From: Eubacteriales bacterium
GTDB lineage: Bacteria > Bacillota > Clostridia > Oscillospirales > CAG-272
Assembly (NCBI GenBank): GCA_045533435.1
Contig: JAZSHT010000104.1
Location: 1,590-65,589, forward strand
Direction: 5' to 3'
Length of the DNA stretch: 64,000 nt
Part shown: one piece after another, positions 5,608 through 55,360 of the stretch
Layout of the letters: every line of letters begins with the position of its first letter
Position numbering within the stretch: position 1 is the stretch's first letter
Notes under the pieces: model-generated
The model's database searches: none
What the model was told of the DNA's origin: nothing
Seen by the model: the letters and a program-made list of their open reading frames with translations, nothing else
Translations under genes and position numbers: made by a program

Positions 5608-5646
5608 CCGTTAGCCGTTAGCCGTTAGCTGTTAGCGAGTAACTCT
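5605..5646 (+). repeat. heptamer array, class TAGCCGT (about 5 units: 3 x TAGCCGT, TAGCTGT, TAGCGAG)
   Basis: Read directly. The first TAG is the mutS stop codon. Confidence 0.9.
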
Positions 5647-7703: not shown

Positions 7704-8840
7704 ATGTTAAAAATATTAAAAACTGACGGCAGAGCAAGAAGATGTGAATTTGAAACAGTTCACGGAACAATTCAAACACCTGTCTTTATGAATGTAGGCA
7801 CATGCGCCGCAATCAAGGGCGGTATATCCTCAATGGACTTAAAGGATGTAAAATGTCAGGTTGAATTATCAAATACATACCACCTACACATTCGCCCGGG
7901 TGATAGACTTATTCACGATTTAGGCGGACTTCATAAGTTTATGAATTGGGATAAGCCAATCTTAACCGATAGCGGCGGATTTCAGGTTTTCTCCCTTGCT
8001 CAATTACGCAAAATAACCGAAGAGGGCGTTAAATTCGCATCTCACATTGATGGTAAGCGTATTTTTATGGGTCCTGAGGAATCAATGCAAATTCAATCAA
8101 ACCTAGGCTCAACAATCGCTATGGCATTTGATGAATGTATTGAAAACCCTGCCAAATATGACTATACCAAGCAGTCCTGCGACCGTACAGTAAGATGGTT
8201 AAAGCGTTGTAAGGTAGAACTTGACAGACTTAATTCACTTCCCGATACAATCAATAAAAACCAAATGCTTTTCGGTATTAACCAAGGTAGCACATACGAG
8301 GATTTAAGAATTAAGCATATGCAAGAAATTGCAGAGCTTGACCTTGACGGCTACGCAATCGGTGGTCTTGCCGTAGGCGAGGAAACTGAGGAAATGTATC
8401 GTATAATTGACATCGTAGAGCCACATATGCCTGTAAATAAGCCAAGATACCTAATGGGCGTAGGCACACCCTGTAACATTCTTGAAGCGGTACATCGCGG
8501 TATTGACTTCTTTGACTGTGTAATGCCATCAAGAAACGCAAGACACGGTAACCTCTTTACATGGCACGGTAAAATGAATATCATGAACGAAAAATACCGT
8601 GATGATGCGAAGCCAATAGATGAAAACTGTAAATGCCCTGCTTGTCAGCATTATTCAAGAGCATATATAAGACATCTTATCAAGGCAAAGGAAACACTCG
8701 GTATGCGCCTTTGCGTGCTTCATAACCTCTATTTCTATAATGACCTTATGGAAAAAATCAGAGAAGCGCTTGATAATGACTACTTTGAAAGCTTCTACCA
8801 AAAGTATCGCAATATCTTAGGCGATAGAAGCACTAACTAG
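7704..8840 (+). CDS. tgt: queuine tRNA-ribosyltransferase (tRNA-guanine transglycosylase)
   Basis: 378 aa with TPVFMNVGT, DSGGFQV and the Zn site CxCxxC...H (CKCPACQHYSRAYIRH). The TAG stop is followed directly by 6 x TGGTCAG. Confidence 0.96.
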   Translation: MLKILKTDGRARRCEFETVHGTIQTPVFMNVGTCAAIKGGISSMDLKDVKCQVELSNTYHLHIRPGDRLIHDLGGLHKFMNWDKPILTDSGGFQVFSLAQLRKITEEGVKFASHIDGKRIFMGPEESMQIQSNLGSTIAMAFDECIENPAKYDYTKQSCDRTVRWLKRCKVELDRLNSLPDTINKNQMLFGINQGSTYEDLRIKHMQEIAELDLDGYAIGGLAVGEETEEMYRIIDIVEPHMPVNKPRYLMGVGTPCNILEAVHRGIDFFDCVMPSRNARHGNLFTWHGKMNIMNEKYRDDAKPIDENCKCPACQHYSRAYIRHLIKAKETLGMRLCVLHNLYFYNDLMEKIREALDNDYFESFYQKYRNILGDRSTN

Positions 8841-8882
8841 TGGTCAGTGGTCAGTGGTCAGTGGTCAGTGGTCAGTGGTCAA
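8838..8882 (+). repeat. heptamer array, class TGGTCAG (TAG + 5 x TGGTCAG + TGGTCAA)
   Basis: Read directly. Starts at the tgt TAG stop. Followed by hairpins CCTTCTCC-TTGA-GGAGAAGG (8886-8905) and GTCAAC-TTT-GTTGAC (8907-8921). Confidence 0.95.
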
Positions 8883-17397: not shown

Positions 17398-17470
17398 TCG
17401 AGATGATAGGATTCGAACCTACGGCATCATGGTCCCAAACCATGCGCGCTACCAACTGCGCTACATCTCG
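17398..17470 (-). tRNA. tRNA-Pro (anticodon UGG)
   Basis: The reverse complement folds as a cloverleaf: acceptor CGAGATG/CATCTCG, D arm GCGC-AGTTGGTA-GCGC, anticodon stem CATGG/CCATG with loop TTTGGGA, T arm GTAGG-TTCGAAT-CCTAT. CCA is not encoded. A terminator lies downstream. Confidence 0.93.
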
Positions 17471-23447: not shown

Positions 23448-25028
23448 ATGTTTATCAAAAAATATTTAACCATGCTCAAAAATGAGTTTAGTGGTTATAA
23501 TGCAAAAAAATTTTCAAAGGACCTCCTTGCTGGTCTTACAGTTACCGCAGTAGCATTACCACTTGCACTCGCATTCGGTATTCAATGCGGAGCAAGCGCT
23601 GAGGCAGGACTTATTACTGCAATAATCGCAGGACTTATTATTGGCGCATTATCAGGCGCATCATTCCAAATAAGCGGACCGACAGGCGCTATGTCAGCCG
23701 TGCTTATTGGTGTTGTAGGCTCATCCTTAGGACTTAAGGGTGTATTTGTAGTTTCATTCTTTGCCGGCATTTTAATTTTGCTTTGCGCAGTGTTTAAGCT
23801 CGGCAGATTTGTTTCTAAAATTCCACGCCCTGTAATCACAGGCTTTACATCAGGCATTGCTCTTATTATCGCATTCGGTCAGGTTCAAAACTTCTTTGGA
23901 CTTCCAAACCTAGTAGAAAAGCACGAAAACTCCTTTTTAAACATAATCGGTTTTATCAAGGAGGGCTTTCAGTTTAATATCTACTCAGTATTTATGGGCT
24001 TAATTGTCATTGTAGTTATGATAGCTTGGCCTAAAAAGCTAAATGCAGTAGTGCCATCATCATTAGTAGGTATTATTGTTGCTACACTTTTATCCTTAAT
24101 TCCAATTTTCGGTGGCGAAAATATGGCTGTTGTTGGCGACATTCCAAAGAAAATATTCCTTGATGAAAGATTTTCATTTAACTCAATTCAGTGGAAAAGC
24201 TTTTTCTCATACATATCCCCTGCATTTAGCGTGGCAGCGCTTGCTATAATTGAAAGCTTACTTTGTGGCGCATCTGCCTCAAAAATGAAAAATGAAGAAT
24301 TTGATGCAAACCAAGAATTAATCGCACAGGGTGTGGGAAATATAGTAATACCATTCTTTGGTGGCGTACCTGCAACTGCAGCTATTGCAAGAACAAGCGT
24401 AGCTATCAAATCAGGCTGTCAAACAAGAATTGCAGGTATCATTCACGCTCTTGGCTTACTTGCTTCAATGTTCCTTCTAGGCCCTGTAATGGCAAAAATT
24501 CCACTTGCCGCACTTGCAGGTGTATTAATGGTAACTGCATTTAGAATGAACGAATGGAAATCAATTAAAGAAATTTTCTCTAAAAAATACTATATTGCCA
24601 TTGCAGAATTCTTAATCACAATGATTGCAACCGTTGCATTTGATTTAACAATCGCTATTATTATCGGTATCGTATTTTCAATTTTCTCATATCTTATTAC
24701 CGTTAAGTTTAAGCCAACAAAAACAACAGTAGAGCTAAACAGACAGTACATAAGAAGCCAAATTAACATAAACGGCTCAATTTTCTTTAATAATATTGAG
24801 AAAATAGAGAAAGTAATTTTGTCAACTGAAACCACAAATACACTTCTTTCCTTAGAGAATGTAATCTATATTGATGCATCGGGAATTGAAATGCTAACAG
24901 AGGCTAAAAAGCTACTTGAAGAAAACGGAAAAACACTTATTATTCACACACCAAGCCACCAAATTGAAAAAATCATGGCTAAAACAGGTATTGTAGATGA
25001 TTACACCCCTGTAACCTATGAGGAATAA
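23448..25028 (+). CDS. SulP family inorganic anion transporter with C-terminal STAS domain
   Basis: 526 aa with SulP N-terminal motif (DLLAGLTVTAVALPLALAFG), polytopic, C-terminal STAS-like segment. Confidence 0.88.
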   Translation: MFIKKYLTMLKNEFSGYNAKKFSKDLLAGLTVTAVALPLALAFGIQCGASAEAGLITAIIAGLIIGALSGASFQISGPTGAMSAVLIGVVGSSLGLKGVFVVSFFAGILILLCAVFKLGRFVSKIPRPVITGFTSGIALIIAFGQVQNFFGLPNLVEKHENSFLNIIGFIKEGFQFNIYSVFMGLIVIVVMIAWPKKLNAVVPSSLVGIIVATLLSLIPIFGGENMAVVGDIPKKIFLDERFSFNSIQWKSFFSYISPAFSVAALAIIESLLCGASASKMKNEEFDANQELIAQGVGNIVIPFFGGVPATAAIARTSVAIKSGCQTRIAGIIHALGLLASMFLLGPVMAKIPLAALAGVLMVTAFRMNEWKSIKEIFSKKYYIAIAEFLITMIATVAFDLTIAIIIGIVFSIFSYLITVKFKPTKTTVELNRQYIRSQININGSIFFNNIEKIEKVILSTETTNTLLSLENVIYIDASGIEMLTEAKKLLEENGKTLIIHTPSHQIEKIMAKTGIVDDYTPVTYEE

Positions 25029-25029
25029 A

Positions 25030-25683
25030 ATGAATAAGTACACTACTATTTTATTTGACTTGGACGGAACGCTAACCGACCCCGGCGAGGGTATAATCAA
25101 CTCTGTTGAGTATGCTTTAAATAAATATGGTATATCCGTTGAAGACAAAAAATCACTTTGCAAATTTATAGGCCCACCTCTTGTAGATTCATTTTCAAAA
25201 TATTATGGCTTCAATGAAGAAAAATCAAGAAAAGCAATAGAAATTTACAGAGAATACTATAAGGCTAAGGGCATAAACGAGTGCAAGCTTTTTGATGGCA
25301 TTAAGGAGCTTCTTGAATCATTAAAGAATAGCGACTATGAAATTGCCCTGGCCACCTCAAAGCCAGAGCTTTTCGCACACATAGTCCTACAAAATTATGA
25401 TATTCACAAATATTTTGACTTTATCAGCGGCGCAACAATAGATGAAAAAACACGCTATACAAAGGAGCATGTTATTGAATACGCTCTTGATAATATCAAG
25501 GAAAAGGATAGAACAAAAATCCTTATGATAGGCGACAGATGCTTTGACATAAACGGAGCAAAAGCATATAGCCTTGACTCAATTGGCGTAACCTTCGGCT
25601 ATGGCACTTATGAGGAATTAAAGGAAGCGGGAGCTACTTATATTGTGTCATCTCCAAAGGAAATAGAAAATCTACTTGTATAA
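25030..25683 (+). CDS. HAD-IA family hydrolase (phosphoglycolate phosphatase/5'-nucleotidase-like)
   Basis: The ATG at 25030 has RBS GAGGA and gives MNKYTTILFDLDGTLTD. The track start at 25018 overlaps the SulP gene. GDRCFD motif. Confidence 0.85.
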   Translation: MNKYTTILFDLDGTLTDPGEGIINSVEYALNKYGISVEDKKSLCKFIGPPLVDSFSKYYGFNEEKSRKAIEIYREYYKAKGINECKLFDGIKELLESLKNSDYEIALATSKPELFAHIVLQNYDIHKYFDFISGATIDEKTRYTKEHVIEYALDNIKEKDRTKILMIGDRCFDINGAKAYSLDSIGVTFGYGTYEELKEAGATYIVSSPKEIENLLV

Positions 25684-25717
25684 AAAAATGCTACGCATCA
25701 AGCGTAGCATTTTTTTA
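25682..25717. terminator. bidirectional terminator
   Basis: A-run, ATGCTACGC-ATCAA-GCGTAGCAT, T-run. Lies between convergent genes. Confidence 0.85.
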
Positions 25718-27040
25718 ATATTCGTTTATTGCGTCCTTGGTAATAGGTATTTCCACAGTAACATTTTCAACACCTGTTAATGTTGATCTTTCAACTGTAA
25801 CATATAGTGTATCTCCAACTCTTGCATTCAAAAGAAAATCAATGATTTGGTGCTGCTGTGTAATTTCTATTTCCTTATCATTTAATTTAGCAGAAAGTAA
25901 AACATCATTTTTCTTTAGCTTGCCATAAGCAATTCCACCACTATTTACCTCAGAAACAAATACTGTTTCCTTAATCATTACATGTCCATCATCTGTTAAA
26001 TATGCACTTGAATCGGAAATTCCCACGGTAATGTTTAGTAAAGCTCTTTGAACTCTTTCAAGCTCTGTGCCGTAGCAATGGTCAATTATATTGTCAGCCA
26101 CAGCCTTTACAATATTAGATGGAATAGCATATCCAATGTTTTCAAGACTTGTATCACTTGTTTTTGCATTTACAATTCCAATAAGCTTACCATTTTCATT
26201 GTATAGACCACCACCGCTGTTACCGGAGTTAACAGGAGTGTCAATTCTCATAACGCGAAGGGAAACAGCACCGCCAATATTTAAAGTGATATGCTCAGAA
26301 TATACACTTACAATACCGTAAGATGCCGAAATTCCCGCACCATCAGGATTACCAATCGCAATAGCGCTTTGACCTGCATATATTTTGTCCGAGTCATCAA
26401 AATCAGCTTCAATAAATACATTGTTTTTGAAATATTCGCAATTATCAATTCTTAAAACAGCAATATCATAATTGTTTGAACCGCCAACGAATGTAGCAGA
26501 CACCTTCATATCACCATATTCGCTACCGTAAAATAAAACATTAATACTGTCAGCAATACCATTTTTATTTACCGCGTTTTCATTATAAACAACATGATAA
26601 TTTGTAATGATAAATGCGCTGCTTGCTTCCTTATCAATTTTATATATTACGCCGGAGCCGGCAGAAGCAGATGTAGATAAACCACCGTATTTATTGTAAA
26701 CATTATGAACACATTGTATGCTAACCGCGCTGCGAAGACCATTTGCCACAGCAAATGAAGCATCGTTGCTATTTCCGTTTATGTCAACATTTACGCTTCC
26801 ATCTTTACCGACAACACTTCCAAGGTTCTGTACGCTACCATTGGTATAAGTAATTATTAGCTCCCCATCGTTATTTATATCAACAGAGCTTATTTGAAGC
26901 CCCTCGTTTTTATCAGGCTTCATATCATCTGTTGAAGCAGAAGAGTCTAGATAGCTACTAAGAAACATACAGCTTGTCATGCCAAGTACAAATAATAGCG
27001 TTAACATTAAAAGCAAAGCTTTAGAAATTTTTTTGTTCAT
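25715..27040 (-). CDS. trypsin-like (S1C/HtrA-type) serine protease lipoprotein
   Basis: 441 aa with signal peptide and lipobox (LGMTSC). Motifs TNYHV and GNSGGGL (catalytic Ser). Confidence 0.85.
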   Translation of the reverse strand: MNKKISKALLLMLTLLFVLGMTSCMFLSSYLDSSASTDDMKPDKNEGLQISSVDINNDGELIITYTNGSVQNLGSVVGKDGSVNVDINGNSNDASFAVANGLRSAVSIQCVHNVYNKYGGLSTSASAGSGVIYKIDKEASSAFIITNYHVVYNENAVNKNGIADSINVLFYGSEYGDMKVSATFVGGSNNYDIAVLRIDNCEYFKNNVFIEADFDDSDKIYAGQSAIAIGNPDGAGISASYGIVSVYSEHITLNIGGAVSLRVMRIDTPVNSGNSGGGLYNENGKLIGIVNAKTSDTSLENIGYAIPSNIVKAVADNIIDHCYGTELERVQRALLNITVGISDSSAYLTDDGHVMIKETVFVSEVNSGGIAYGKLKKNDVLLSAKLNDKEIEITQQHQIIDFLLNARVGDTLYVTVERSTLTGVENVTVEIPITKDAINEY

Positions 27041-27168
27041 TTAATATATCCTCACAAATCGTCATTAATTTGATTCATAAGCTTATTTTACCACATTTTT
27101 TCAAAAAATGTTCGTTTTTTTCAAAAAATATTAATGAATAAATATTCACAAAAAATTTCAAAAATATA

Positions 27169-27200
27169 TTGACTTGAAAAAATCATTGTGCTATTATAAT
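27169..27200 (+). promoter_or_regulatory. sigma-A promoter of ilvE with a TGn extended -10
   Basis: TTGACT, 17 nt, TATTAT, preceded by TGC. Shares AATCATTGTGCTAT with the typA promoter. Confidence 0.6.
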
Positions 27201-27239
27201 TTACATAGTATTTTAGCAAATTAAAACGAGGATACAACA

Positions 27240-28304
27240 ATGGAAATCACAATTACAAAATCACAAAATAAAACAGAATTACCAAACGAAGCTTCATTAG
27301 GCTTTGGCAAGGTATTTACAGACCATATGTTTATTATGGATTATGAAATGGGTAAAGGATGGCAAAATGCAAGAATTGTACCATTTGGATACCTTTCAAT
27401 CCACCCCGCATCAACTGTTTTACATTACGGCTCTGAGATCTTTGAGGGCTTAAAGGCATATAGAACAGAAAGCGGCGAAATTCGCTTATTTAGACCAATG
27501 GAAAATATCAGAAGAATGAACGCTTCAGCTAACCGTATGTGCTTACCTGAAATTGATGAAAATGACTTCTTACAAGCTCTCACAACATTCGTTGAGCTTG
27601 AAAAGGACTTTGTTCCACACTCATTCGGTACATCATTATACCTTCGCCCATATATGTTCGGTAATGATGAAACATTAGGCGTTCACACAGTACATAGAGC
27701 AACATTTATGATTATTGCATCCCCAAGCGGAAGCTATTATGCAGAGGGAATAAATCCAGTTAAAATTATGATTGAAAACGAGGATGTAAGAGCAGTAAAG
27801 GGCGGTACAGGCGCAGTAAAATGTGGCGGTAACTATGCAGCATCAAACAGAGCAGGCGAAAAGGCAGCTAAGAAGGGCTACTCTCAGGTATTATGGCTTG
27901 ACGGTATTCATAGAAAATATATCGAAGAGGTTGGCGCTATGAATGTTATGTTTAAGCTTGATGGCGAAATCGTAACTCCTGAGCTTTCAGGCTCAATCCT
28001 TCCAGGTATTACAAGAAAATCTTGCATTGAGGTTTTAAAGAAAATGGGCTACAAGGTAAGCGAAAGACTTATTTCTGTCGATGAGCTTATCGAAGCATTA
28101 AAGAACGGCAAATTAGAGGAAGCGTGGGGATGCGGAACAGCCGCAGTTGTTTCTCCAATCGGCAGATTTTTCTATGATGGCGTTGAATATGATGTTAATA
28201 ACGGACAAATCGGTGAGGTTACTCAAAAGCTCTACGATACCTTAACAGGCATCCAATGGGGCAAGCTAAGCGACGACTTTGGATGGATATACAAAATATG
28301 CTAA
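27240..28304 (+). CDS. ilvE: branched-chain amino acid aminotransferase
   Basis: 354 aa, fold-type IV PLP aminotransferase pattern (FEGLKAYR..., GGTGAVKCGGNYAAS). Consensus promoter upstream. Confidence 0.93.
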   Translation: MEITITKSQNKTELPNEASLGFGKVFTDHMFIMDYEMGKGWQNARIVPFGYLSIHPASTVLHYGSEIFEGLKAYRTESGEIRLFRPMENIRRMNASANRMCLPEIDENDFLQALTTFVELEKDFVPHSFGTSLYLRPYMFGNDETLGVHTVHRATFMIIASPSGSYYAEGINPVKIMIENEDVRAVKGGTGAVKCGGNYAASNRAGEKAAKKGYSQVLWLDGIHRKYIEEVGAMNVMFKLDGEIVTPELSGSILPGITRKSCIEVLKKMGYKVSERLISVDELIEALKNGKLEEAWGCGTAAVVSPIGRFFYDGVEYDVNNGQIGEVTQKLYDTLTGIQWGKLSDDFGWIYKIC

Positions 28305-28440
28305 AATTAGAGGGGATGTTGCAATAAGAACCTGCTACGCAGAACCTTGTTACTCGCAGGCTCGTAATAAGCACAGACCAAAAACAGACACATATCTCAT
28401 AAAAAAGTTCTATTTGTAATTCAAAATATTCTTTAATGTT

Positions 28441-28478
28441 GAGAACTTGCATTTTTTTGCAAGTTCTCTTCATTTTTA
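28441..28478 (+). terminator. terminator-like hairpin about 140 nt downstream of ilvE
   Basis: 11-bp stem GAGAACTTGCA / TGCAAGTTCTC with a T6 loop, then TTCATTTTT. Confidence 0.55.
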
Positions 28479-28490
28479 TGTCTGTTTTTT

Positions 28491-28644
28491 AGACGCGAAC
28501 ACAGGCGGTCATAGGGCCCCCCGTAAAAATCTGTCAAGATTTTTGGGGAATGACTATTCCGTACGCAAGTACGCTTACGAGAACCCCCTAAACTCATACT
28601 TCGTTTTGGGGAACCCCTATTACGCTCCGTGTTAAAGCGCGTCT
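28491..28644 (+). ncRNA. candidate structured RNA (closing helix plus three internal hairpins, one with a GCAA tetraloop)
   Basis: P1 is AGACGCG/AACAC (28491-28502) pairing with GTGTT/CGCGTCT (28629-28644). P2 is 28519-28548, P3 is CGTAC-GCAA-GTACG at 28560-28573, P4 is 28585-28611. It sits between two terminator-like hairpins. I recognise no family. Confidence 0.3.
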
Positions 28645-28671
28645 TCTGCACTCATTTCACTATCCCCATTC

Positions 28672-28715
28672 AAAAAAGGGGCTTTTGCTTAACGCAACAG
28701 CCCCTTTTATTTTTG
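28672..28715 (+). terminator. rho-independent terminator
   Basis: AAAAGGGGC ... GCCCCTTTT plus a T-run. Confidence 0.7.
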
Positions 28716-28744
28716 TTGACAACTCTATAATATAATGATATACT
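28716..28744 (+). promoter_or_regulatory. sigma-A promoter of the GH38/CotH operon
   Basis: TTGACA, 17 nt, TATACT. Confidence 0.65.
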
Positions 28745-28778
28745 GAGTATAACTACGGACAAACAAGGGCGGTTTATT

Positions 28779-31196
28779 ATGAAAAAAAGAATACACTTAG
28801 TATGTAATGCCCACATTGACCCTATTTGGCAATGGGACTGGCCTGAGGGAGTTAGCGCAACACTCTCCACCTTCTATACGGCAGCAAGACTTTGTGATGA
28901 ATTTGACTATATTTTTTGCCATAACGAAGTAACGGTTTACAAATATATTGAGGAGTATGCTCCGGAGCTTTTTGAAAAAATCAAAGAGCTTGTAAAGCTA
29001 GGCAAGTGGCACATAATGGGTGGCTGGTATTTACAGCCAGACTGTAATTTGATTTGTGGAGAGAGCTTCGTAAGACAAATAAGAGAGGGACAACGATACT
29101 TTAAGGAAAAGTTCGGCGTTTGTCCTAAAACTGCCATAAACCTTGACCCATTCGGCCACACGGTGGGTCTTGTTCAAATTGTAAAAAAGTGCGGTCAGGA
29201 CAGCTATTTATTCATGCGTCCCTACGGTAGCGAAATATCGTTACCAAGCGACCACTTTATTTGGCGTGGACTTGACGGCAGCGAAATAAAGGCTGTAAGA
29301 ATTACAGGCGGCTATAACACACCTCTTGGCAAAAGCGCAGAATCCCTTTACCATAAAACAAAGTGGCAGCCCTTTGACGTGGGCGTGGCTCTTTGGGGTG
29401 TTGGTAATCACGGCGGTGGTCCTTCAAAAAAGGATTTAGAGGACATTAAAAATCAGCTTTTATGCAATACCGAAAAGGAATTTATCCACTCTACTCCCGA
29501 TAAATTTTTCAGCGAAATAGAGCCAAGTGATGTTGTTGATACCTCACTTCGCATTTCTATGCCCGGCTGCTATACGTCTATGTACCGTGTAAAGAAGCTA
29601 CACGCTCAGCTTGAAAATGAAATTTTAATGGCGGAAAAAATTGCATCTGTGGCTTATCTAAAGGGAGCTATTGATACCTATCCCGAAAAGGAAATAAAAA
29701 TCGCAACCGAGGATTTATTAAACGCTCAGTTCCACGATGTATTACCCGGCACATCCGTTCAATGCGGAGAGGACGCAGGTCTTAGATACTTAAATCACGG
29801 CATGCTTGAAGCTGAAAGAGTTAAAATTAAGTCTTATTTTGCACTTTCTCAGGAGCAGGGAGTTGCAAAGGAAGGGGAATATCCATTCGTAATATTCAAC
29901 CCTAATCCATATGAGCTATGTGATAACGTGGAGTGTGAATTTACTCTCGCCGACCAAAACTGGAATGAGAATATAAATTCCGTTTTAAGAGTCGTTGACG
30001 AAAACGGAAACGCAGTTCCTTACCAAATTATAAAAGAGGATAGCAACCTTAATCTTGACTGGCGTAAGCGCGTTATTTTCGAGGCAAAATTAAAGCCAAT
30101 GTCCTTGGCGCGTTACAGCGTTTACGTTGATTTTAAGGATAAAGAGGAAAAGTCCCTTGACTCCGTATTTACATACGATAACGGAAGAAAGCACGTTGAA
30201 ATAGACAAAAACACAGGTCTTTTAAAATCATATAAAATTGACGGTATTGAATATTTAAAAGACGGTTTTGGTTTATGCAGTTTTGACGATAACGCTGACC
30301 CATGGGGAATGGGCAAAAATCAGCTTTTAAGAGTGGGCGAAAATGAAAAACCCTTCTCCCTCTCAAAAAATCCTCACGGCGTATTTGATGGCATGAAGTC
30401 CGTGCAGATTATCGAAAACGGCGATATTTACCTAGGCATTGAAGCGTTTTTTGAGTGTGATGACACCAAGGCTAGAATTTTATACAAGATTTATAAAAAC
30501 AACGATAACGTTGATATTGACGTTAATCTGTATTTAGGCGATGTTAATAAGATAATCAAGCTAAAAGTACCATTTAATGCTTCGGGCAGCCTTATGGGTC
30601 AAACTGCATTCGGCACGCAGGAGCTATTTACTGATGGCAGAGAAAACGTTGCACATCGCTTTGTTGCTCTTGACATGGGAGAAAAGTGCGTATCATTTAT
30701 GAATACAAGCGTTTACGGCAGCCACTTTGAAAATAACGCTCTTTATATGTCCCTTGTCCGCGGCGTTACCTACTGCGCACATCCTATTGGGGAAAGAGAG
30801 CTTATCCCAAGCGACAGATTTACAAAGAAAATCGACCAAGGGGAAAATAATTATTCATTTAGACTTACAGTAACAAACAGAAGTCAGCTTGAAAGAAAAG
30901 CAAGTGAGTTTATTTCAAAGCCTTACGCTCTTAACATTTTCCCAATTCCAAATAGCAAGTCGTTATCAAGCCTTGATATACGTGTAGGCGGAGAGGTAAT
31001 TTCATTAGTAACAATGAAAAAAGCATACGATAAGGATGCAGTTATTTTCCGTTTAATAAACAACACTCCATGCACCGAAAAATCATATATAAAGGTAAAC
31101 AATACCCAGCTTGACCTATCCTTTGGCAAATACGAGGTAAAAACAGTAGTTTACGAAAACGGAGCTTTAACCGAAAGCTATGAGCTACTGATATAA
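28779..31196 (+). CDS. GH38 family alpha-mannosidase (cytosolic)
   Basis: 805 aa with N-terminal HLVCNAHIDPIWQW and DPFGH motifs. Consensus promoter TTGACA-17-TATACT upstream. Confidence 0.88.
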   Translation: MKKRIHLVCNAHIDPIWQWDWPEGVSATLSTFYTAARLCDEFDYIFCHNEVTVYKYIEEYAPELFEKIKELVKLGKWHIMGGWYLQPDCNLICGESFVRQIREGQRYFKEKFGVCPKTAINLDPFGHTVGLVQIVKKCGQDSYLFMRPYGSEISLPSDHFIWRGLDGSEIKAVRITGGYNTPLGKSAESLYHKTKWQPFDVGVALWGVGNHGGGPSKKDLEDIKNQLLCNTEKEFIHSTPDKFFSEIEPSDVVDTSLRISMPGCYTSMYRVKKLHAQLENEILMAEKIASVAYLKGAIDTYPEKEIKIATEDLLNAQFHDVLPGTSVQCGEDAGLRYLNHGMLEAERVKIKSYFALSQEQGVAKEGEYPFVIFNPNPYELCDNVECEFTLADQNWNENINSVLRVVDENGNAVPYQIIKEDSNLNLDWRKRVIFEAKLKPMSLARYSVYVDFKDKEEKSLDSVFTYDNGRKHVEIDKNTGLLKSYKIDGIEYLKDGFGLCSFDDNADPWGMGKNQLLRVGENEKPFSLSKNPHGVFDGMKSVQIIENGDIYLGIEAFFECDDTKARILYKIYKNNDNVDIDVNLYLGDVNKIIKLKVPFNASGSLMGQTAFGTQELFTDGRENVAHRFVALDMGEKCVSFMNTSVYGSHFENNALYMSLVRGVTYCAHPIGERELIPSDRFTKKIDQGENNYSFRLTVTNRSQLERKASEFISKPYALNIFPIPNSKSLSSLDIRVGGEVISLVTMKKAYDKDAVIFRLINNTPCTEKSYIKVNNTQLDLSFGKYEVKTVVYENGALTESYELLI

Positions 31197-31205: not shown

Positions 31206-33173
31206 ATGGTAAATAAAAAGCTATTTTTGGCGCTTTGCTTTATTATAGCGTTGCTTGCCTTAGCATCATGCTATAACACTACGCCAAATGACACAATATC
31301 AACTGATACTGAAATTATAGACACATTACCTAGCGAAACGGACACGGATACTGAAAATACAGACAAGGAGCAAGGCTATTTTGTGGCAACCGTTGCTAAA
31401 AGCGAATATTTTGTAGCCACTCCATACACCGATGGTAACGAGGTTGAAAATGAGCTAAAAGGCATTTTCTACTCAGCAGACTCTCCTGGTGGAAAGCCAA
31501 AAAATGATGGGAGCGGTAAAATATATCTTTCAGTAAAGCCACAAAAAACATACAATGTAACAAAATTAGTAATTGGTGGAGAATATTCATCCGTTGAAAA
31601 AATCGGTATGGATTTGTGGTGTATTCACGGTGTTAAGTCCGACCTTACAGTAAATGCCAACACAATTACAATGATTTCTACTCAAAAGGAATATTTTAAG
31701 GACTACGGCTATTATATTTCCGATGATGGCAAGCTATCTATTTCTTGGATGGAAAGCGAAAACGACCCACTTCGCTATGTGGAAATAAGCTACAATGATA
31801 AATATGGCTCATATACCTCTTATGTGGATGCTAAGGAATATAAAAAAGAGCTTTTTACAATGAATGAAAACGAGGTTTACTCAGTTTCTATAAGAGCCGT
31901 GGGAGAGACGCGTTTAGGCAAGAAAATTGACCTTTCCTGTTGCTTTATGAAAGCACCAAAGGATGTAAAATTCCCACGAATTGAAATCACTACTGAAAAT
32001 TATGTATTGCCAAGCTGTGATTTTGTTTCATCCCCTGAGGGATGCTGGGGTGCAGGAATTACAAATGCGCTTTACGAAAGGTGTGTGGCTGTAATTTATA
32101 ACGAAAATAACGAAATTGTTTATTCCTCAGCCGATACGCAAGACGACATATATCAAGGCGCAAAGCTAAAAATTAGAGGAAACACAAGCGCAAGATACGC
32201 TTCAAGCGGTAGATTTCCGTATAAATTAAAGCTTGATAAAAAGTCCGACCTTTTAGCTCCCCTTATTGGCAGAATCGATGATAGCAACATTTACGCGGAT
32301 AAGGATTGGCTTTTACTTAACTACGGAAGTGATGGCTACCGTATCCTTGGAGATGCTATTGCAGATGGCGTAAATACAGAGTGGTCTCCCGATTATTGCT
32401 ATGTTACATTATACATAAATGGCGAATACAGAGGGCTTTATGTTTTATCAGAGGCAGTTGAAGAGGGAAGCGGAAACGAAGAGGACAGATGGCGTGTAAA
32501 TGTTGATGCAGATGGCTATGTGTTTGAATGTGATGCATATTGGTGGAATGAGGAGCACTATTTTAGCACGCCCTTAACTGAAAATACACCTATGTATTTT
32601 ACATTTAAGTATCCCGACCCCGATTTAGCTCCCGACTACACATATTTAAGAGATTATTTGATTAAATTTGAGGAAGCCTTAATGAAGGATGATGATTCCT
32701 ACCTTGAATATATCGACCTTGATTCCTTTGTTAAGTGGCTGCTTGTGTCCGATATACTTTGTATTGAGGATGGCGGCGGATGTAATCTATTCCTTTATAA
32801 AAAGAATTCAAGCGATGACACAAAAATCTGTATGGGACCCAACTGGGATTTTGACTCCTATATGGGAAGCGTTGATGGTCTTTCAGTAATTAGAATGAAA
32901 TGGAATGGCGCGCCATTTTATTATCAATACTTAATTGAAAAAGAGTCATTTGTTAAGCGCTACACCGAGCTATTTTATCAGGTTAAGGACAATTTAGCTA
33001 AGTATGTAAACGCTGAATTTGACAAAATTGACATAGAAGCACATTCACTTCTTTTAAATTATGACAACATGCGCTTTGGTACATCAAAAACAACGCTAAG
33101 CACAAGAAAGCAACGCTTTTTAACATGGCTTGCGGAGCATATTGCTTGGATGGAAACACAATTTCCGCAATAA
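31206..33173 (+). CDS. CotH kinase-family lipoprotein
   Basis: 655 aa with lipobox LALASC. CotH-type motifs LKIRGNTSARY and YVTLYINGEYRGLYVLSE. Confidence 0.82.
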   Translation: MVNKKLFLALCFIIALLALASCYNTTPNDTISTDTEIIDTLPSETDTDTENTDKEQGYFVATVAKSEYFVATPYTDGNEVENELKGIFYSADSPGGKPKNDGSGKIYLSVKPQKTYNVTKLVIGGEYSSVEKIGMDLWCIHGVKSDLTVNANTITMISTQKEYFKDYGYYISDDGKLSISWMESENDPLRYVEISYNDKYGSYTSYVDAKEYKKELFTMNENEVYSVSIRAVGETRLGKKIDLSCCFMKAPKDVKFPRIEITTENYVLPSCDFVSSPEGCWGAGITNALYERCVAVIYNENNEIVYSSADTQDDIYQGAKLKIRGNTSARYASSGRFPYKLKLDKKSDLLAPLIGRIDDSNIYADKDWLLLNYGSDGYRILGDAIADGVNTEWSPDYCYVTLYINGEYRGLYVLSEAVEEGSGNEEDRWRVNVDADGYVFECDAYWWNEEHYFSTPLTENTPMYFTFKYPDPDLAPDYTYLRDYLIKFEEALMKDDDSYLEYIDLDSFVKWLLVSDILCIEDGGGCNLFLYKKNSSDDTKICMGPNWDFDSYMGSVDGLSVIRMKWNGAPFYYQYLIEKESFVKRYTELFYQVKDNLAKYVNAEFDKIDIEAHSLLLNYDNMRFGTSKTTLSTRKQRFLTWLAEHIAWMETQFPQ

Positions 33174-33238
33174 AATCAGAGCCGCAGTAAGCATAATAGC
33201 TCACAAAATTTTAAAATTAAGATATTTTTGAGGTTTTT

Positions 33239-33424
33239 ATGAGAAATAAAGAAAACAAGCATCTTGGAATAGAAATTGACAAGGAATTACATTACAAATT
33301 GCATTATATTTCAAAATACTACGGCAGAAGTGCCAATGGAGAAATCTTATTTTTAATAAGACAGGCAATTAAGGAATTTGAAAAGCTTGAGGGCGAAATT
33401 GATTTTCCACCAAAGGAAGACTAA
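33239..33424 (+). CDS. ribbon-helix-helix (Arc/CopG-like) small DNA-binding protein
   Basis: 61 aa. A beta-strand then two helices pattern (LGIEIDKELHYKLHYISKYYGRSANGEILFLIRQAIKEFEK). Confidence 0.6.
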   Translation: MRNKENKHLGIEIDKELHYKLHYISKYYGRSANGEILFLIRQAIKEFEKLEGEIDFPPKED

Positions 33425-33433
33425 GAGGTAAAA

Positions 33434-33676
33434 ATGAACATAGGAGCAGCTACAAGATTGCGTATTATTGAGCTATGCGAGCAAAAAAACATAACCCTAA
33501 ACAAGCTATCAACCATTTGTGGAATTACTCAATCAACACTTAACAATATCGTATGTGGCAGAAATAAAAGCACAACTATTTCAACCATTAAAAAAATTTG
33601 TGATGGCTTAGAGATTGATGTTCGTGAATTTTTTAATTCCAAGCTATTTGACAACTTAGAGCAAGAAATAAAATAG
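33434..33676 (+). CDS. XRE-family helix-turn-helix protein
   Basis: 80 aa with HTH_3 pattern (ITLNKLSTICGITQSTLNNIVCGRN), RBS AAGAGG, terminator follows. Confidence 0.8.
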   Translation: MNIGAATRLRIIELCEQKNITLNKLSTICGITQSTLNNIVCGRNKSTTISTIKKICDGLEIDVREFFNSKLFDNLEQEIK

Positions 33677-33683
33677 AAGTAAG

Positions 33684-33709
33684 GAGCAGAGAAATCTGCT
33701 CTTTATTTT
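33684..33709 (+). terminator. rho-independent terminator
   Basis: GAGCAGA-GAAA-TCTGCTC plus TTTATTTT. Confidence 0.75.
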
Positions 33710-33710
33710 A

Positions 33711-33739
33711 TTGACAGGCTTTTATTTGTGTGATAAAAT
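33711..33739 (+). promoter_or_regulatory. sigma-A promoter of the serine hydrolase gene
   Basis: TTGACA, 17 nt, TAAAAT. Confidence 0.65.
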
Positions 33740-33772
33740 GCTTATATAATATTATTTAAGGTAGGTAGAGTT

Positions 33773-35245
33773 ATGTTTAGAAATGTAACGCCAGAAAGCG
33801 TTGGTGTTGACTCTAAAAATCTTTTTAAGCTTATAAAAAGGCTAAACGCCTTGCATATGCACAGCCTTTTAGTAGCAAGGGGCAACGATATTTTTTGCGA
33901 ATGCTATTGGAAGCCATTTGATAAGGACTTTAACCACAGAATGTATTCTGTTACAAAGAGCTTTGTGTCGGTTGCAATCGGTCTATGTGTAGAGGATGGC
34001 TTGCTTGAATTAGATGACCCAATTATAGAATATTTTCCTGAAAAAATCAAAAAAGAGCCAGGGGAGTATCTAAAAAAGCAAACAATTCGCGATATGCTTA
34101 CCATGACAACGGTAGGATTTTGTCAAGATTGGTTTAAAGAAAAGCCTTATGACAGAACGGAATTTTATTTAAATGACCAAAACAAAAAGCATCCAAGCGG
34201 AACACTTTGGGAATATGATAGCGCAGGGTCGCAGGTGCTTTCATCATTGGTTGAAAAGGTAACAGGCAAGAGCATTTTTGATTTCTTAAATGAAAGAATT
34301 TTCACAAAATTAGATGCATTTAAAAATGCCACCATATTAAAGACACCTAACGGCGATAGCTGGGGCGATTCGGCTCTTATTTGCACACCGAGGGATTTAC
34401 TCGCATTTGCTCGCTTCGTGTTAAATTACGGCGTATATAACGGCGAAAGGCTGATGAATGAGGACTATCTAAGAGAAGCAACCGCAAGACATAAGGATAA
34501 CTCTCCATCTGCCCACAGGGATTCCTTGCACCGTGGCTACGGCTATCAATTTTGGCGCGCGCCCAATGATAGCTTTGCATTTGTGGGAATGGGAAATCAG
34601 CTTGCTATTTGTGTGCCAGGCAAGGACTTAATTTTCGTTTGCACCGCAGACAATCAAGGCAGTGAATTTTCAACAGAGCTTATTGTAAACGGCTTTTATG
34701 AGTACATTGTTGATGAAATAAGCGACACTCCCCTGCCTGAAAATGAAAATAATTCAAAAATGCTTAATTCTCTCATAAATTCCCTTGAGCTTTACTGTGA
34801 ATACGGCTATGTTGACTCCCCATACCGTGAAATTATAAATGGCGTAACATATAAGTGCGAGGAAAATCAAATGGGAATTAAAAGCTTCCGCTTTGATTTT
34901 GCAAACGATAAAGAGGGAACACTTACATACGAAAATGAAAACGGTACAATGGTATTGCCATTTAAGATAAACTCAAACTATTTTGGTAAGTTCCCTGAGG
35001 AAGGCTATTCCAACGAATATGGCTCTTTACGCACACAGGATGGCTTTAAATATAACTGTGCAACAAGTGGTGCTTGGACACAAACGGACAAAATAACAGT
35101 ATTTTCACAAATTATTGATAAATACTTCGGCAATGTAACATTTTCATTCTATTTTAAGGATGATTTAGCATTTTTAAGATGCGAAAAAACTGCCGAGGAC
35201 TTCCTTTGGCAATACAAAGGCGACGCCGTTGGCGTCAGGGTATAG
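33773..35245 (+). CDS. serine hydrolase, beta-lactamase/transpeptidase-like family
   Basis: 490 aa with SxxK motif (SVTKSF). The last codons and the TAG stop are encoded by a TAGGGTA-class heptamer array. Confidence 0.82.
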   Translation: MFRNVTPESVGVDSKNLFKLIKRLNALHMHSLLVARGNDIFCECYWKPFDKDFNHRMYSVTKSFVSVAIGLCVEDGLLELDDPIIEYFPEKIKKEPGEYLKKQTIRDMLTMTTVGFCQDWFKEKPYDRTEFYLNDQNKKHPSGTLWEYDSAGSQVLSSLVEKVTGKSIFDFLNERIFTKLDAFKNATILKTPNGDSWGDSALICTPRDLLAFARFVLNYGVYNGERLMNEDYLREATARHKDNSPSAHRDSLHRGYGYQFWRAPNDSFAFVGMGNQLAICVPGKDLIFVCTADNQGSEFSTELIVNGFYEYIVDEISDTPLPENENNSKMLNSLINSLELYCEYGYVDSPYREIINGVTYKCEENQMGIKSFRFDFANDKEGTLTYENENGTMVLPFKINSNYFGKFPEEGYSNEYGSLRTQDGFKYNCATSGAWTQTDKITVFSQIIDKYFGNVTFSFYFKDDLAFLRCEKTAEDFLWQYKGDAVGVRV

Positions 35246-35263
35246 GATATAGGGTATAGGGGT
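35236..35263 (+). repeat. heptamer array, class TAGGGTA (CAGGGTA TAGGATA TAGGGTA TAGGGGT)
   Basis: Read directly. Supplies the last codons and the TAG stop (35243-35245) of the upstream CDS. Confidence 0.85.
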
Positions 35264-36558: not shown

Positions 36559-36597
36559 TAGCCGCCAGCCGTTAGCAGCCAGCGGTCAGCCGTTAAC
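36559..36597 (+). repeat. heptamer array, class TAGCCGT (TAGCCGC CAGCCGT TAGCAGC CAGCGGT CAGCCGT TAAC)
   Basis: Read directly. Starts 2 nt after the TAA stop of the CopZ-like gene. Confidence 0.85.
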
Positions 36598-36643
36598 AAA
36601 TCTTATGATATTAAAGAATAGGCGCTACAATATCGAATAAAAC

Positions 36644-39636: not shown

Positions 39637-39671
39637 CAGCGGTCAGCCGTTAGCCGTTAGCGGTTAGCGAG
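39637..39671 (+). repeat. heptamer array, class TAGCCGT (CAGCGGT CAGCCGT TAGCCGT TAGCGGT TAGCGAG)
   Basis: Read directly. Preceded by the TAG stop (39621-39623) and the box TTCGCTTCGCTCACAG. Confidence 0.88.
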
Positions 39672-41949: not shown

Positions 41950-41983
41950 TAGTGGTCAGTGATCAGTGGTCAGTGATCAGTAG
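41950..41983 (+). repeat. heptamer array, left arm of an inverted pair (TAG TGGTCAG TGATCAG TGGTCAG TGATCAG TAG)
   Basis: Starts 2 nt after the pncB TAA. Complementary to 42073-42103. Confidence 0.92.
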
Positions 41984-42072: not shown

Positions 42073-42103
42073 CTGACCACTGACCACTGACTACTGACCA
42101 CTG
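42073..42103 (-). repeat. heptamer array, right arm of an inverted pair (CTGACCA CTGACCA CTGACTA CTGACCA CTG)
   Basis: Ends 17 nt before the ymdB ATG. The reverse complement matches the left arm except at 2-3 positions. Confidence 0.92.
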
Positions 42104-44203: not shown

Positions 44204-44376
44204 GTTATGAATCCGCTATGCGAATGTTATGAACTTGCTACGCAAGCGTTATGAATTTTGCGAAACAAAATGTTATGATATGATTGCCAAACGCCGTCAG
44301 GCTCATAACACGCGTAGCGTTCATAACGACGAAGTCTCATAACTTGTCCTGAGGCTTCGCGGAAGGCAATCATAAC
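44204..44376. repeat. zipper element: 4 x GTTATGA then 4 x TCATAAC, each separated by 8-26 nt
   Basis: GTTATGA at 44204, 44226, 44248, 44272. TCATAAC at 44303, 44321, 44337, 44370. Spacers contain mini-hairpins (CTTGC-TAC-GCAAG). Confidence 0.85.
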
Positions 44377-44377
44377 T

Positions 44378-44410
44378 GTTCTCCTTTCGGAGAACGAAAG
44401 GAGAACTATG
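44378..44410 (+). promoter_or_regulatory. alternative hairpins involving the Shine-Dalgarno sequence of the MBL gene
   Basis: GTTCTCCTTTC (44378-44388) is exactly complementary to GAAAGGAGAAC (44396-44406, the RBS). Its first 7 nt also pair with GGAGAAC (44389-44395). Confidence 0.5.
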
Positions 44411-45187: not shown

Positions 45188-45218
45188 TAGTGGTCAGTGG
45201 CTAGTGGTCAGTGGTCAG
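45188..45218 (+). repeat. heptamer array, left arm (TAG TGGTCAG TGGCTAG TGGTCAG TGGTCAG)
   Basis: Starts 6 nt after the TAA of the MBL gene. Complementary to 45330-45356. Confidence 0.92.
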
Positions 45219-45329
45219 TAAGCTTGCTATACGACTTTTACAACTAACCGCTAATTATGTACCGCTTATTAAAATGACGTTTAACGCTTATCTTTGTTTT
45301 TGTTCGTGTTCTTTGGTCTATCCGCTTGT

Positions 45330-45356
45330 CACTGACCACTGACCACTGATCACTAC
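45330..45356 (-). repeat. heptamer array, right arm (CA CTGACCA CTGACCA CTGATCA CTAC)
   Basis: Followed by AAAA and then CGACTGAAAGGAG (45361-45373) and the rsmG ATG. Confidence 0.92.
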
Positions 45357-47550: not shown

Positions 47551-47697
47551 ATATATATAATGATGAATAAAAATGCAAATTTTATTTAAAAAATGCAACA
47601 AATTTTCATTTGTTAACACATTGTTCATAATTATGTGATAGAATAAAGTATATTTTTTTATTTTATATAATAATTAATTTATATTAGCTTATGATAT

Positions 47698-47735
47698 CTG
47701 CTGACGGCTGACAGCTAACGGCTGGTGGCTGTTCA
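47698..47735 (-). repeat. heptamer array, reverse orientation of class TAGCCGT (CTG CTGACGG CTGACAG CTAACGG CTGGTGG CTGTTCA)
   Basis: Read directly. Lies in the 5' UTR, ending 26 nt before the citrate synthase ATG. Confidence 0.85.
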
Positions 47736-52940: not shown

Positions 52941-52974
52941 CTGCTGACCGCTGACCACTGATCACTGACCACTA
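52941..52974 (-). repeat. heptamer array (reverse complement: TAG TGGTCAG TGATCAG TGGTCAG CGGTCAG CAG)
   Basis: This TAG is the stop of the minus-strand gene 52972-53847. Inverted counterpart of the array at 49133-49163. Confidence 0.92.
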
Positions 52975-53874: not shown

Positions 53875-53910
53875 CAGGGAATAGGGTATAGGGAATAGGA
53901 GATAGGGAAA
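53875..53910 (+). repeat. heptamer array, class TAGGGTA (CAGGGAA TAGGGTA TAGGGAA TAGGAGA TAGGGAA)
   Basis: Lies in the 5' UTR of the minus-strand gene and reads CCCTAT-type in that mRNA. Adjacent to CGACTGAAAGGAG (reverse complement of 53858-53870). Confidence 0.9.
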
Positions 53911-54170: not shown

Positions 54171-54204
54171 ATCCCTATCCCCTATCCCCTATATCCTATC
54201 CCCC
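54171..54204 (-). repeat. heptamer array, CCCTATC-type (ATCCCTA TCCCCTA TCCCCTA TATCCTA TCCCCC)
   Basis: Lies in the 5' UTR of the transporter gene. Followed by AAAG and then CGACTGAAAGGAG (54209-54221). Confidence 0.9.
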
Positions 54205-54226: not shown

Positions 54227-55345
54227 ATGAAGACCGTATATAAATTTTTTGCAGGTCATGCTGTTTTAACGGTTGCAATGATTATTGCGCTTGTTACAAT
54301 GGTAATTGTGCCGCCTGATGTTACATACTTTGACTACATAGACTTTAAAACGCTTTTCTGTCTTTTTGCTACGCTTCTTGTGGTGTGTGCTTTAAAGAAT
54401 ATTCGCTTTTTTACCTTAATTTCAAGAAAGATTGTTCACGCTACGCCTAACCTTAGAGTATGCGTTTTGGCGCTTTTGTATATCACATTTATTGGCTCAC
54501 TTTTTATTGCCAACGATATGGCGCTTATTACATTTTTGCCCCTTGGATATTTCGTATTAAGCGACACAGGTAACCATAAATATATGGCTTGGGTGTTTGT
54601 TTTACAGAATATTGCCGCAAATTTAGGTGGAATGCTAACACCATTTGGCAATCCTCAAAACCTATATTTATACACTAAATTTAACATACCAACTCTTGAA
54701 TTTATGGGTATTATGGTATTTCCGTTTTTGCTTGCAGTTTTAATGCTAACATTATCCGTGCTATTTTTCCCAAAAACAAAAATGGAATTGTCCATAAGCG
54801 ATGATATAATTGAGTTTAAGCCTAAGCGCACCGCAATTTACATAGTGCTTTTTGCGGTATCAATCCTTGCGGTATTTTCAGTAATTCATTATTTAATTGC
54901 CGCTGTTATAATCGCAGTTGGAATTTTTATGCTTGATAAAAAAGCATTTTTAAAGGTTGACTATCCCTTGCTTTTAACATTTTTAATGTTCTTTATTTTT
55001 GCGGGAAATATGTCAAGAATAGACTTAATTCGTGATTTTATGTCGGGACTTTTAGAAAAAAACACACTTTTAGTGTCCGCTTTATCATGTCAGTTTATTT
55101 CAAATGTGCCATCCGCGGTGTTATTATCTCAGTTTACCGATAACTATAAATCACTTTTGCTTGGCGTTAATATCGGTGGCACAGGCACAATTATAGCATC
55201 CTTAGCAAGCTTAATCACATTTTCGGAGTTTTCACGCTATCAGCCTGAGAATAAAAAGAAATATTTTGGCGTTTTCACGCTTCTAAATGTAATATTTTTG
55301 ATGGTTCTCTTAATTTTTTGTGTTTTTCTTGAAAAAATTTTATAA
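54227..55345 (+). CDS. ArsB/NhaD-superfamily ion transporter (CitMHS-like permease)
   Basis: The ATG at 54227 has RBS GAAAGGAG (MKTVYKFFAG...). The track start at 54089 would translate the heptamer array and leader. Polytopic membrane protein. Confidence 0.75.
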   Translation: MKTVYKFFAGHAVLTVAMIIALVTMVIVPPDVTYFDYIDFKTLFCLFATLLVVCALKNIRFFTLISRKIVHATPNLRVCVLALLYITFIGSLFIANDMALITFLPLGYFVLSDTGNHKYMAWVFVLQNIAANLGGMLTPFGNPQNLYLYTKFNIPTLEFMGIMVFPFLLAVLMLTLSVLFFPKTKMELSISDDIIEFKPKRTAIYIVLFAVSILAVFSVIHYLIAAVIIAVGIFMLDKKAFLKVDYPLLLTFLMFFIFAGNMSRIDLIRDFMSGLLEKNTLLVSALSCQFISNVPSAVLLSQFTDNYKSLLLGVNIGGTGTIIASLASLITFSEFSRYQPENKKKYFGVFTLLNVIFLMVLLIFCVFLEKIL

Positions 55346-55360
55346 AAACACTTTATTTTT

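Follow-up and report, generated by a model that had tools for sequence, protein, structure and literature searches.

Between ilvE (27240-28304) and a gene for a GH38 alpha-mannosidase (28779-31196), the 64,000 nucleotides of a Eubacteriales contig analysed here (the window) contain a gap of 470 bp (28305-28778), in which the initial annotation had placed a discrete multi-helix RNA of about 155 nt flanked by two terminator hairpins. The locus raises the question whether this fold belongs to an RNA encoded for this very place or to a sequence that has come from elsewhere. The name ilvE is based on close relatives of the gene product, which carry Pfam Aminotran_4. That the gap is non-coding, as had been stated, is borne out by the block that occupies most of it (28308-28701, delimited below): reading frames across it are not conserved, for which reason small-protein coding was rejected, and they are shifted by the indels that distinguish its two full copies. 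When all six frames of the block were translated and concatenated, no relative at E<=10 emerged among 5.8 billion proteins, and a Pfam search of the block gives no match.

Delimitation of the block

On the ilvE side, blastn and nhmmer searches for the block covered 80 ilvE loci, whose source species are related uncultured Clostridia living in animal and human guts (protein identity 70-85%); they detected only a terminator look-alike, in locus L004. Closer relatives were obtained by exact-protein look-ups. The closest, L081, whose IlvE is 99% identical at the amino acid level, shares 97.6% nucleotide identity with the window over 24240-28307, and this identity ends at 28307, three bases past the stop codon. 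Behind ilvE, L081 and L082 carry a short terminator and a Flg_new gene, and L083 carries a leuA leader; the block is missing from all three of these closest ilvE relatives. Towards GH38, seven loci whose GH38 proteins have 87-97% amino acid identity (L084-L090) align to the window from 28702 on, with nucleotide identities of 85-94%, the right flank being 94% identical to L084 and L085. In these loci the region upstream of GH38 holds a single Metallophos gene or a pair of them, together with a short GGGATAG/CTATCCC terminator and a TTGACA-17-TATACT promoter. The corresponding promoter of the window, with a TG extension, lies at 28716-28744 on the plus strand, outside the element, and it is conserved in relatives that have no element in front of GH38 (sequences of L084, L086, L088, and L090). 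Eight GH38 loci (L084-L090 and L142) lack the block, apart from a partial copy located before a Metallophos gene of L090.

Since identity on the left ends at 28307 and identity on the right begins at 28702, the segment 28308-28701 belongs to neither neighbour, and empty sites exist for both flanks, on the ilvE side and on the GH38 side. Among the ilvE and GH38 relatives compared, the adjacency of the two genes is seen solely on the present contig. No further copy of the block occurs elsewhere in the 64-kb window or in about 1.1 Mb of related DNA that was fetched. The initial annotation had named a lack of conservation in relatives as the observation that would speak against its RNA; at the orthologous positions such a lack is what is found, but for the dispersed copy described below it is not.

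Palindromic anatomy and dispersed copies

The segment 28308-28701 is bounded by an imperfect inverted repeat of 26 nt (28303-28328 / 28688-28713) with 81% complementarity. The left arm contains a core, GGGGATGTTGCAATAAG (28312-28328), that begins 7 nt past the ilvE stop codon. Allowing up to three mismatches, this 17-mer occurs within the 64 kb only at the two ends of the element, and two matches were obtained in none of 100 shuffles. Taken together, the outer arms form a stem of the terminator type, and exactly this stem is found as an uninterrupted hairpin, GGGGCTGTTGC-ATACT-GCAACAGCCCC, in L004, where it is the terminator of ilvE. The end motif was detected only at copies of the element and at this L004 terminator. 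Because the arms make up a terminator stem that is whole in L004, the block can also be viewed as sequence inserted into a terminator-type hairpin at its loop, and judging from these sequences the outer arms may be halves of a terminator rather than sites for a transposase. The arms may travel with the element or may be its preferred target.

Inside the left arm, the window carries 43 nt (28329-28371) that have no counterpart in the other copies, L140 and L090, and of which no other copy exists in 141 loci or in viral contigs. They consist of 37 nt with a CTGC-TAC-GCAG mini-hairpin plus one unit of a direct AATAAG repeat. The degenerate units of 14-15 nt that had been reported for 28305-28440 could not be recovered: tandem units were rejected after a negative TRF result, and what is present instead is this 43-nt indel flanked by the direct AATAAG repeat. 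Nor does the mini-hairpin CTGCTACGCAG recur in the so-called zipper element, as had been thought; even with one mismatch it occurs once in the window, and the zipper (44204-44400) contains merely the looser TTGCTACGCAA.

An AT-rich arm follows (28366-28440), of which AAAAACAGACA (28380-28390) pairs with TGTCTGTTTTT (28479-28489) around the first terminator-type hairpin. This pairing comprises 11 nt with 100% complementarity and folds with a z-score of -5.63. The enclosed hairpin 1 (28441-28468, plus strand) was confirmed; it has 11 pairs, a loop of 6 nt and the T-run TTCATTTTTA reaching to 28478, and its fold z-score is -6.96. At the other end, terminator 2 (28672-28715) was likewise confirmed, consisting of an A-run, a stem at 28678-28688 / 28694-28704 with one mismatch, and a T-run; the right inverted-repeat arm (28688-28713) is at the same time the 3' half of this terminator. 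With an A-run on its 5' side and a T-run on its 3' side, it can serve as a terminator on either strand, and it folds equally well on both (z -4.84 and -4.60). In hairpin 1 and in terminator 2 a GC-rich hairpin directly precedes a U-run, as is characteristic of intrinsic terminators, and both structures are kept in L140. As a consequence of this layout, each strand has a terminator upstream of the core, namely hairpin 1 on the plus strand and terminator 2 on the minus strand.

Between the two lies the multi-helix core (28491-28644), composed of the helices P1 and P2 and the hairpins A, B, and C. Its relative GC richness, already noted at the outset, amounts to about 49% against 25-31% in the flanks and arms. 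The ends of the segment pair as proposed, forming the closing helix P1 (28491-28502 / 28629-28644) in the minimum-free-energy fold, which additionally contains the 6-bp helix P2 (AUAGGG, 28511-28516 / CCCUAU, 28615-28620) enclosing the three hairpins. Hairpins A (28517-28548) and C (28584-28611) are part of this same fold. Hairpin B (CGTAC-GCAA-GTACG, 28560-28573), the remaining one of the three hairpins initially listed, can be read in the sequence and is a predicted pairing in the L140 copy, but it is absent from the window's own minimum-free-energy fold, which pairs that stretch otherwise. Multi-helix folding between two terminator-type hairpins is thus present in the anatomy, and the core folds far better than dinucleotide shuffles: on the plus strand, 28485-28650 folds with -56.6 kcal/mol (z -4.35), and none of 200 shuffles is as good; on the minus strand the value is -64.3 kcal/mol (z -4.62), so that the minus-strand fold is the stabler one. 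As read from the sequence, the named helices consist exclusively of Watson-Crick pairs with no G-U, and the GCAA loop is for this reason the only feature that points to the plus strand. The GNRA loop that had been taken to favour the plus strand therefore exists, but it stands alone, and the stabler fold is that of the other strand.

A complete second copy was found on a metagenome contig of 1280 nt (L140), recovered in a metagenome scan with a 20-mer of the AT-rich arm together with one chance match (L141); a scan with a core pattern recovered none. In L140 the block has the opposite orientation and lies between a truncated parB, an ORF of 134 aa with ParB_N only, and a DHHA1 (RecJ-like) gene, whose 3' end is turned towards the block and is faced by hairpin 1. 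A third, partial copy opens the contig of L090 (GH38 87%): its positions 1-70 are the reverse complement of window 28435-28366 with 94% identity, followed by the left arm, and this inverted copy abuts the promoter of the Metallophos gene while the contig ends inside the element. The 17-mer GGGGATGTTGCAATAAG is identical in the window, L140, and L090. Both in the window, behind ilvE, and in L140, behind the recJ-like gene, the left arm begins 5-7 nt past the stop codon. The copies seen therefore amount to two full ones and a partial one in three assemblies, with a single one in the 64-kb window; the block is intergenic in all three contexts, and each of them shows a synteny break or a truncated gene.

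Conservation between the window and L140 is uneven. The left arm matches at 17 of 17 positions, the AT-rich arm 28366-28440 at 72 of 75, and the 34 nt after hairpin 1 are identical (34/34), while hairpin 1 itself has identical stems and an altered loop. The right part of the core plus the spacer (28559-28666) matches at 107 of 108 positions, with a single 1-nt indel and no substitutions. Terminator 2, directly adjoining, has 35 matches, 7 mismatches and 10 gap columns, about a quarter of it being diverged, and it retains its hairpin with a compensatory change from U-A to C-G. Net indels of 43 and 49 nt separate the two copies. The block 28503-28558 (module A), which holds the 5' strand of P2 and hairpin A, is replaced in L140 by the 7 nt GGCTCTA, and it is a diverged duplicate of module C, with 33 matches and 8 mismatches. 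P1, B, and C are consequently retained in L140, but hairpin A is gone and so is the 5' strand of P2, whose 3' strand is left unpaired, which means that the four-way junction is not conserved.

Other collections did not enlarge the family. Plasmid and phage collections, searched with blastn in distant mode, gave chance matches of about 30 nt only, and scans of viral contigs with core, arm, and insert patterns did not detect the element; a loose pattern, TTTTGGGGAA-N45-65-TTTTGGGGAA, had 45 matches in viral contigs that are unrelated to it.

Structured RNA or mobile repeat

We lean, with slightly better than even confidence, towards regarding 28308-28701 as one copy of a low-copy, non-coding, modular, MITE-like palindromic repeat of about 345-395 bp from an uncultured gut lineage of the Clostridia. 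This reading follows from the combination of a non-coding nature, inverted-repeat ends, absence at orthologous sites, occurrence in three unrelated contexts and in either orientation, and modular variation. Such behaviour is that of small dispersed palindromic repeats of the MITE, BOX, or SPRITE kind (PMC3049150, PMC10969869), for which AT-rich intergenic sites, terminal inverted repeats and tightly folded transcripts have been described as general properties of the MITE type, along with a modular organization in BOX and a likeness to terminators in SPRITE (PMC3049150, PMC10969869). Like MITEs, the present block is short, non-coding, and intergenic, and it has terminal inverted repeats. A target-site duplication, which belongs to the same picture, was not recognised at any of the three insertion sites (window …AATTAG | … | TTTATT…; L140 …ACAAA | … | TTATTC…); target-site duplications decay over time (PMC10969869).

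Several further observations weigh against the MITE-like reading. Only two and a half copies from three assemblies are at hand, no autonomous partner with the same ends has been seen, and 395 bp is long for a bacterial MITE. The motif of the outer stem is also that of an ordinary ilvE terminator in L004. The unique junction of ilvE and GH38 could in principle be an assembly join. Finally, the position of a core matching at 107/108 beside a diverged terminator makes selection at the sequence level possible, which would favour a function as RNA or in protein binding.

The alternative that survives best, although we regard it as unlikely, is a mobile sRNA gene, in which a transcript of about 230 nt (~28479-28712 on the plus strand, ending at terminator 2), or a counterpart on the minus strand, would be the product for which the block is kept. 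The strong fold of the core, its GC richness relative to the flanks, the good intrinsic terminator directly 3' of it on the plus strand and the GCAA tetraloop on that strand all agree with such a gene, as does the 107/108 match of core and spacer to L140 beside a terminator that has diverged with a compensatory change. Yet there is no sigma-70-like promoter inside the element in either full copy, nor does anything resembling a promoter precede the core on the plus or the minus strand, and incoming transcription would be halted by hairpin 1 with its T-run on the plus strand and by terminator 2 on the minus strand. The junction is not conserved, since hairpin A and the 5' strand of P2 are missing from L140; the named helices display no strand asymmetry in the form of G-U pairs, and the minus strand is the stabler one. 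With 0 substitutions between the window and L140, the core offers no covariation. Nor could it be assigned to a known RNA family, as was already the case at the outset: Rfam 15 models produced no match there, either at the gathering threshold or at a permissive E<=10. The sole match above threshold in the window is a tRNA (17398-17470). Below threshold, the best matches are look-alikes of terminators, such as STnc50 with 25 bits where 55 are required, and none of them falls on the core. A group II intron domain 5 and a tRNA-like cloverleaf were rejected as candidates in the absence of a model match.

As for the discrete structured RNA belonging to this locus that was originally proposed, the comparative data do not support it: the block is missing from the orthologous loci of both ilvE and GH38, a promoter was not found and the junction is not conserved. 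According to the MITE-like reading, the "RNA" of 155 nt would be the fold that any transcript or single strand of nested palindromes adopts, with no dedicated RNA gene. That the fold is probably a property of the palindromic DNA is suggested by its equal presence on both strands, the lack of G-U pairs, the lack of a promoter, and the terminator upstream of the core on each strand.

A different doubt concerns the context and not the element. The arrangement ilvE-block-GH38 might be an assembly join through the repeat in a chimeric MAG contig, in which case the element would be real and its local surroundings would not; we hold this to be decidedly unlikely. It is the case that ilvE lies beside GH38 in no relative, that identity reaches 97.6% with L081 on the left flank and 94% with L084/L085 on the right, and that the contig of L090 breaks within the element. 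But recombination between copies of the repeat could equally yield the junction, and even a joined contig presupposes the element on either side of the join, which leaves its nature unchanged. The look-up of P0121 (GH38 protein, 100% identity) gave no contig as an independent assembly. Exact look-ups of the window's IlvE, the window's GH38, and P0121 found none on record, and the four Logan contigs for P0127 all begin within the Metallophos gene and stop short of the element.

There is also a small chance that the P1-closed core (~105-155 nt) is a mobile structured RNA under sequence constraint. It could, for example, serve a non-autonomous mobile element, as yet unrecognised and directed at terminator hairpins, as its guide or scaffold RNA or as its ribozyme. 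Such an RNA would explain the 107/108 match beside a diverged terminator, the splitting of terminator stems, and the synteny breakpoints in three contexts.

Inverted repeats of 26 nt around a 359-bp segment that adjoins a promoter might suggest an inverton, i.e., a segment flipped by a site-specific recombinase in order to switch the expression of neighbouring genes, and the L090 segment does have the opposite orientation relative to the homologous promoter. This is very improbable, as the segment has no promoter of its own, flipping a bidirectional terminator 2 would change little, and the two orientations are seen at different loci and not at a single one. Among 30 scanned ORFs, moreover, no invertase or integrase was found, and no transposase.

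Even less credit can be given to an element resembling a type I toxin-antitoxin system, with a small hydrophobic peptide (MQVLNIKEYFELQIELFYEICVCFWSVLI...) encoded on the minus strand, its start within hairpin 1 and the core as a structured 5' leader. The window, L140, and L090 have the ORF start and about 30 codons in common, a hairpin sequesters the start codon, and a dispersed, intergenic distribution would fit; but of the four substitutions in this common stretch about three are replacements and one is silent, as expected without selection, the frame leaves the element so that the C-terminus differs in each copy (84, 92, and ~36 aa), the Shine-Dalgarno sequence is weak and a promoter is lacking, and neither the 5.8 billion proteins nor Pfam contain a match.

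A cis-regulatory RNA, which a multi-helix domain followed by a terminator, 64 nt before the GH38 start codon, might bring to mind, is the least credible of all, since the conserved GH38 promoter (28716-28744) lies downstream of the element and relatives have the promoter without the element (eight GH38 loci, which led us to reject a GH38 riboswitch or leader), since ilvE relatives are likewise without it (which led us to reject an ilvE 3' UTR element), and since the block adjoins unrelated genes in L140.

Relation to known repeats and consequences for the locus

Among described families, BOX of Streptococcus pneumoniae and S. suis offers close organizational parallels, being non-coding, intergenic and tightly folded, with ends that pair with each other and lengths of up to several hundred bp (PMC3049150). 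In its boxA-boxB(n)-boxC arrangement, modules can be present, absent, or duplicated without loss of the outer pairing, as is the case here for module A, which is present or absent and is a paralog of module C. In contrast to BOX, to which it has no sequence similarity, the present element has modules that are not tandem copies of one unit, and it occurs in about three contexts instead of more than 100 copies per genome. With SPRITE it shares the dispersed distribution, the position shortly behind genes, and a fold into a hairpin that resembles a terminator and has a U-rich tract (PMC3049150; PMC10969869), although SPRITE is one long hairpin of less than 200 bp, whereas here two terminator hairpins accompany a core of 155 nt. 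The Correia elements of Neisseria and MITEs such as RUP, Nezha, and QMITE resemble it, according to PMC2649163 and PMC10969869, in having terminal inverted repeats of about 20-30 bp around a non-coding core and in being inserted at AT-rich intergenic sites near promoters or terminators, and the same papers ascribe to Correia elements and classical MITEs effects on the expression of neighbouring genes and on genome rearrangement. They differ in that they show target-site duplications, are present in many copies and can often be traced to a parent IS, and with 345-395 bp the present block is larger than most of them.

Insertion into palindromes has a precedent of its own. IS1397 and ISKpn1, or elements of the IS110 family, insert in the loops of REP/BIME sequences and are autonomous IS equipped with a transposase. 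The block is similar in that it resembles an insert in a terminator-type palindrome, the intact hairpin of which stands after ilvE in L004, and it is different in that these IS carry a transposase, whereas the block contains no gene.

The MITE-like reading may be extended to a model for the locus. The ends of the element would correspond to a GGGGNTGTTGC / GCAACANCCCC terminator stem split in two, and the element as a whole would be a long piece of DNA filling the loop of such a hairpin immediately behind a gene. Within it, perfect inverted repeats would be nested, with hairpin 1 enclosed in the longer 11-bp pairing, followed by the P1-closed core and the second, bidirectional terminator hairpin. 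Spreading might take place by transposition in trans or by recombination. If the MITE-like reading is true, one more family of small palindromic repeats that carry terminators would exist in a poorly studied, uncultured lineage of Clostridia, and the locus would represent a synteny breakpoint between very close strains, or possibly a mis-joined MAG. Such an element may also mislead those screens for ncRNAs that rely on fold stability alone. The finding would gain greater weight if the near-identical core were an RNA that acts in the element's own mobility.

For the neighbouring genes, the MITE-like reading implies that the element took over from ilvE's own terminator. Transcription of ilvE probably ends at hairpin 1, 137 nt past the stop codon, since the gene no longer has the short native terminator that is present in L081. 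Terminator 2 might insulate the GH38 promoter in both directions, from read-through as well as from antisense transcription, and the conserved promoter of GH38 itself is likely to drive this gene. As L142 (GH38 79%) shows, the genes downstream of GH38 stand in an ancient order.

Edges of the palindromic element in related genomes

The stem motif of the element's arms (28303-28328 / 28688-28713) and of terminator 2 (28672-28715) occurs in only one other place in the roughly 1.1 Mb examined, namely in the ilvE terminator of a relative (L004, 78% identical), which reads GGGGCTGTTGC-ATACT-GCAACAGCCCC (L004 5085-5111). This match could be a coincidence, or the relative's terminator could represent an uninterrupted target or ancestor. 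In the metagenome contig carrying a complete copy of the element (L140), the adjoining ParB-like ORF (66-470) encodes 134 amino acyl residues comprising the N-terminal domain only, and its stop is located where the HTH domain should start; it looks like a truncated gene lying at the element's edge.

Two other observations concern the surroundings of ilvE. At the locus of one of the closest ilvE relatives (L083), the gap between the 3' end of ilvE and leuA (4066-4552) contains a sequence (...AGAGTGGTACCGCG...) that by eye looks like a T-box leader preceding leuA. Within the window, a 49-nt stretch in the ilvE promoter region (27150-27198) recurs with 71% identity upstream of the BipA/TypA gene (55333-55381) and ends in AAATCATTGTGCTAT(T/A)ATA.

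Gene content around GH38 and CotH

Across some 70 nt, the promoter region of the GH38 alpha-mannosidase gene shares 77-89% identity with that of the Metallophos gene which precedes GH38 in relatives. Copies of this promoter module are found at 28702-28769 in the window and, at the loci of GH38 relatives, at L084 1962-2026, L088 1584-1653, and L090 63-132, and recombination between such repeats could delete the Metallophos genes. A variable spot lies 3' of the CotH gene (33173-33773; compared with L084, L085, L086, and L090), where a YpsA-like gene present in relatives is absent from the window. Relative to the window, the order of two segments of about 200-250 nt each (33226-33427 and 33423-33674), in which small HTH and 61-aa genes lie, is exchanged in L084 and L085, and these two loci possess an additional Sel1 gene.

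Heptamer arrays and the zipper region

Intergenic arrays of 4-6 heptamer units, of the types (AGTGGTC)n, (TTAGCCG)n, and (AGGGTAT)n, recur at gene ends across the whole window. They lie at 8839-8881, 41951-41981, 42073-42103, 45189-45219, 45330-45354, 52944-52973, and 57313-57343; 5604-5636, 36567-36600, 39638-39669, 47692-47733, and 59255-59288; and 35237-35261, 53876-53909, 54173-54203, and 58744-58774. The arrays may belong to an unusual system of terminators or repeats in this lineage. As they frequently form inverted pairs, with one array on each side of a gene or gap, paired arrays could fold into long "zipper" hairpins.

The "zipper element" of the initial annotation, said to share the CTGC-TAC-GCAG mini-hairpin of the palindromic element, is probably the repeat region 44204-44400, which separates a galactokinase-like gene from a metallo-beta-lactamase-fold gene. 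The region consists of three GTTATGAA-N14 units with a period of 22, followed by inverted units containing TCATAAC, and has only a loose GCTACGCA motif in common with the mini-hairpin region (28332-28342).
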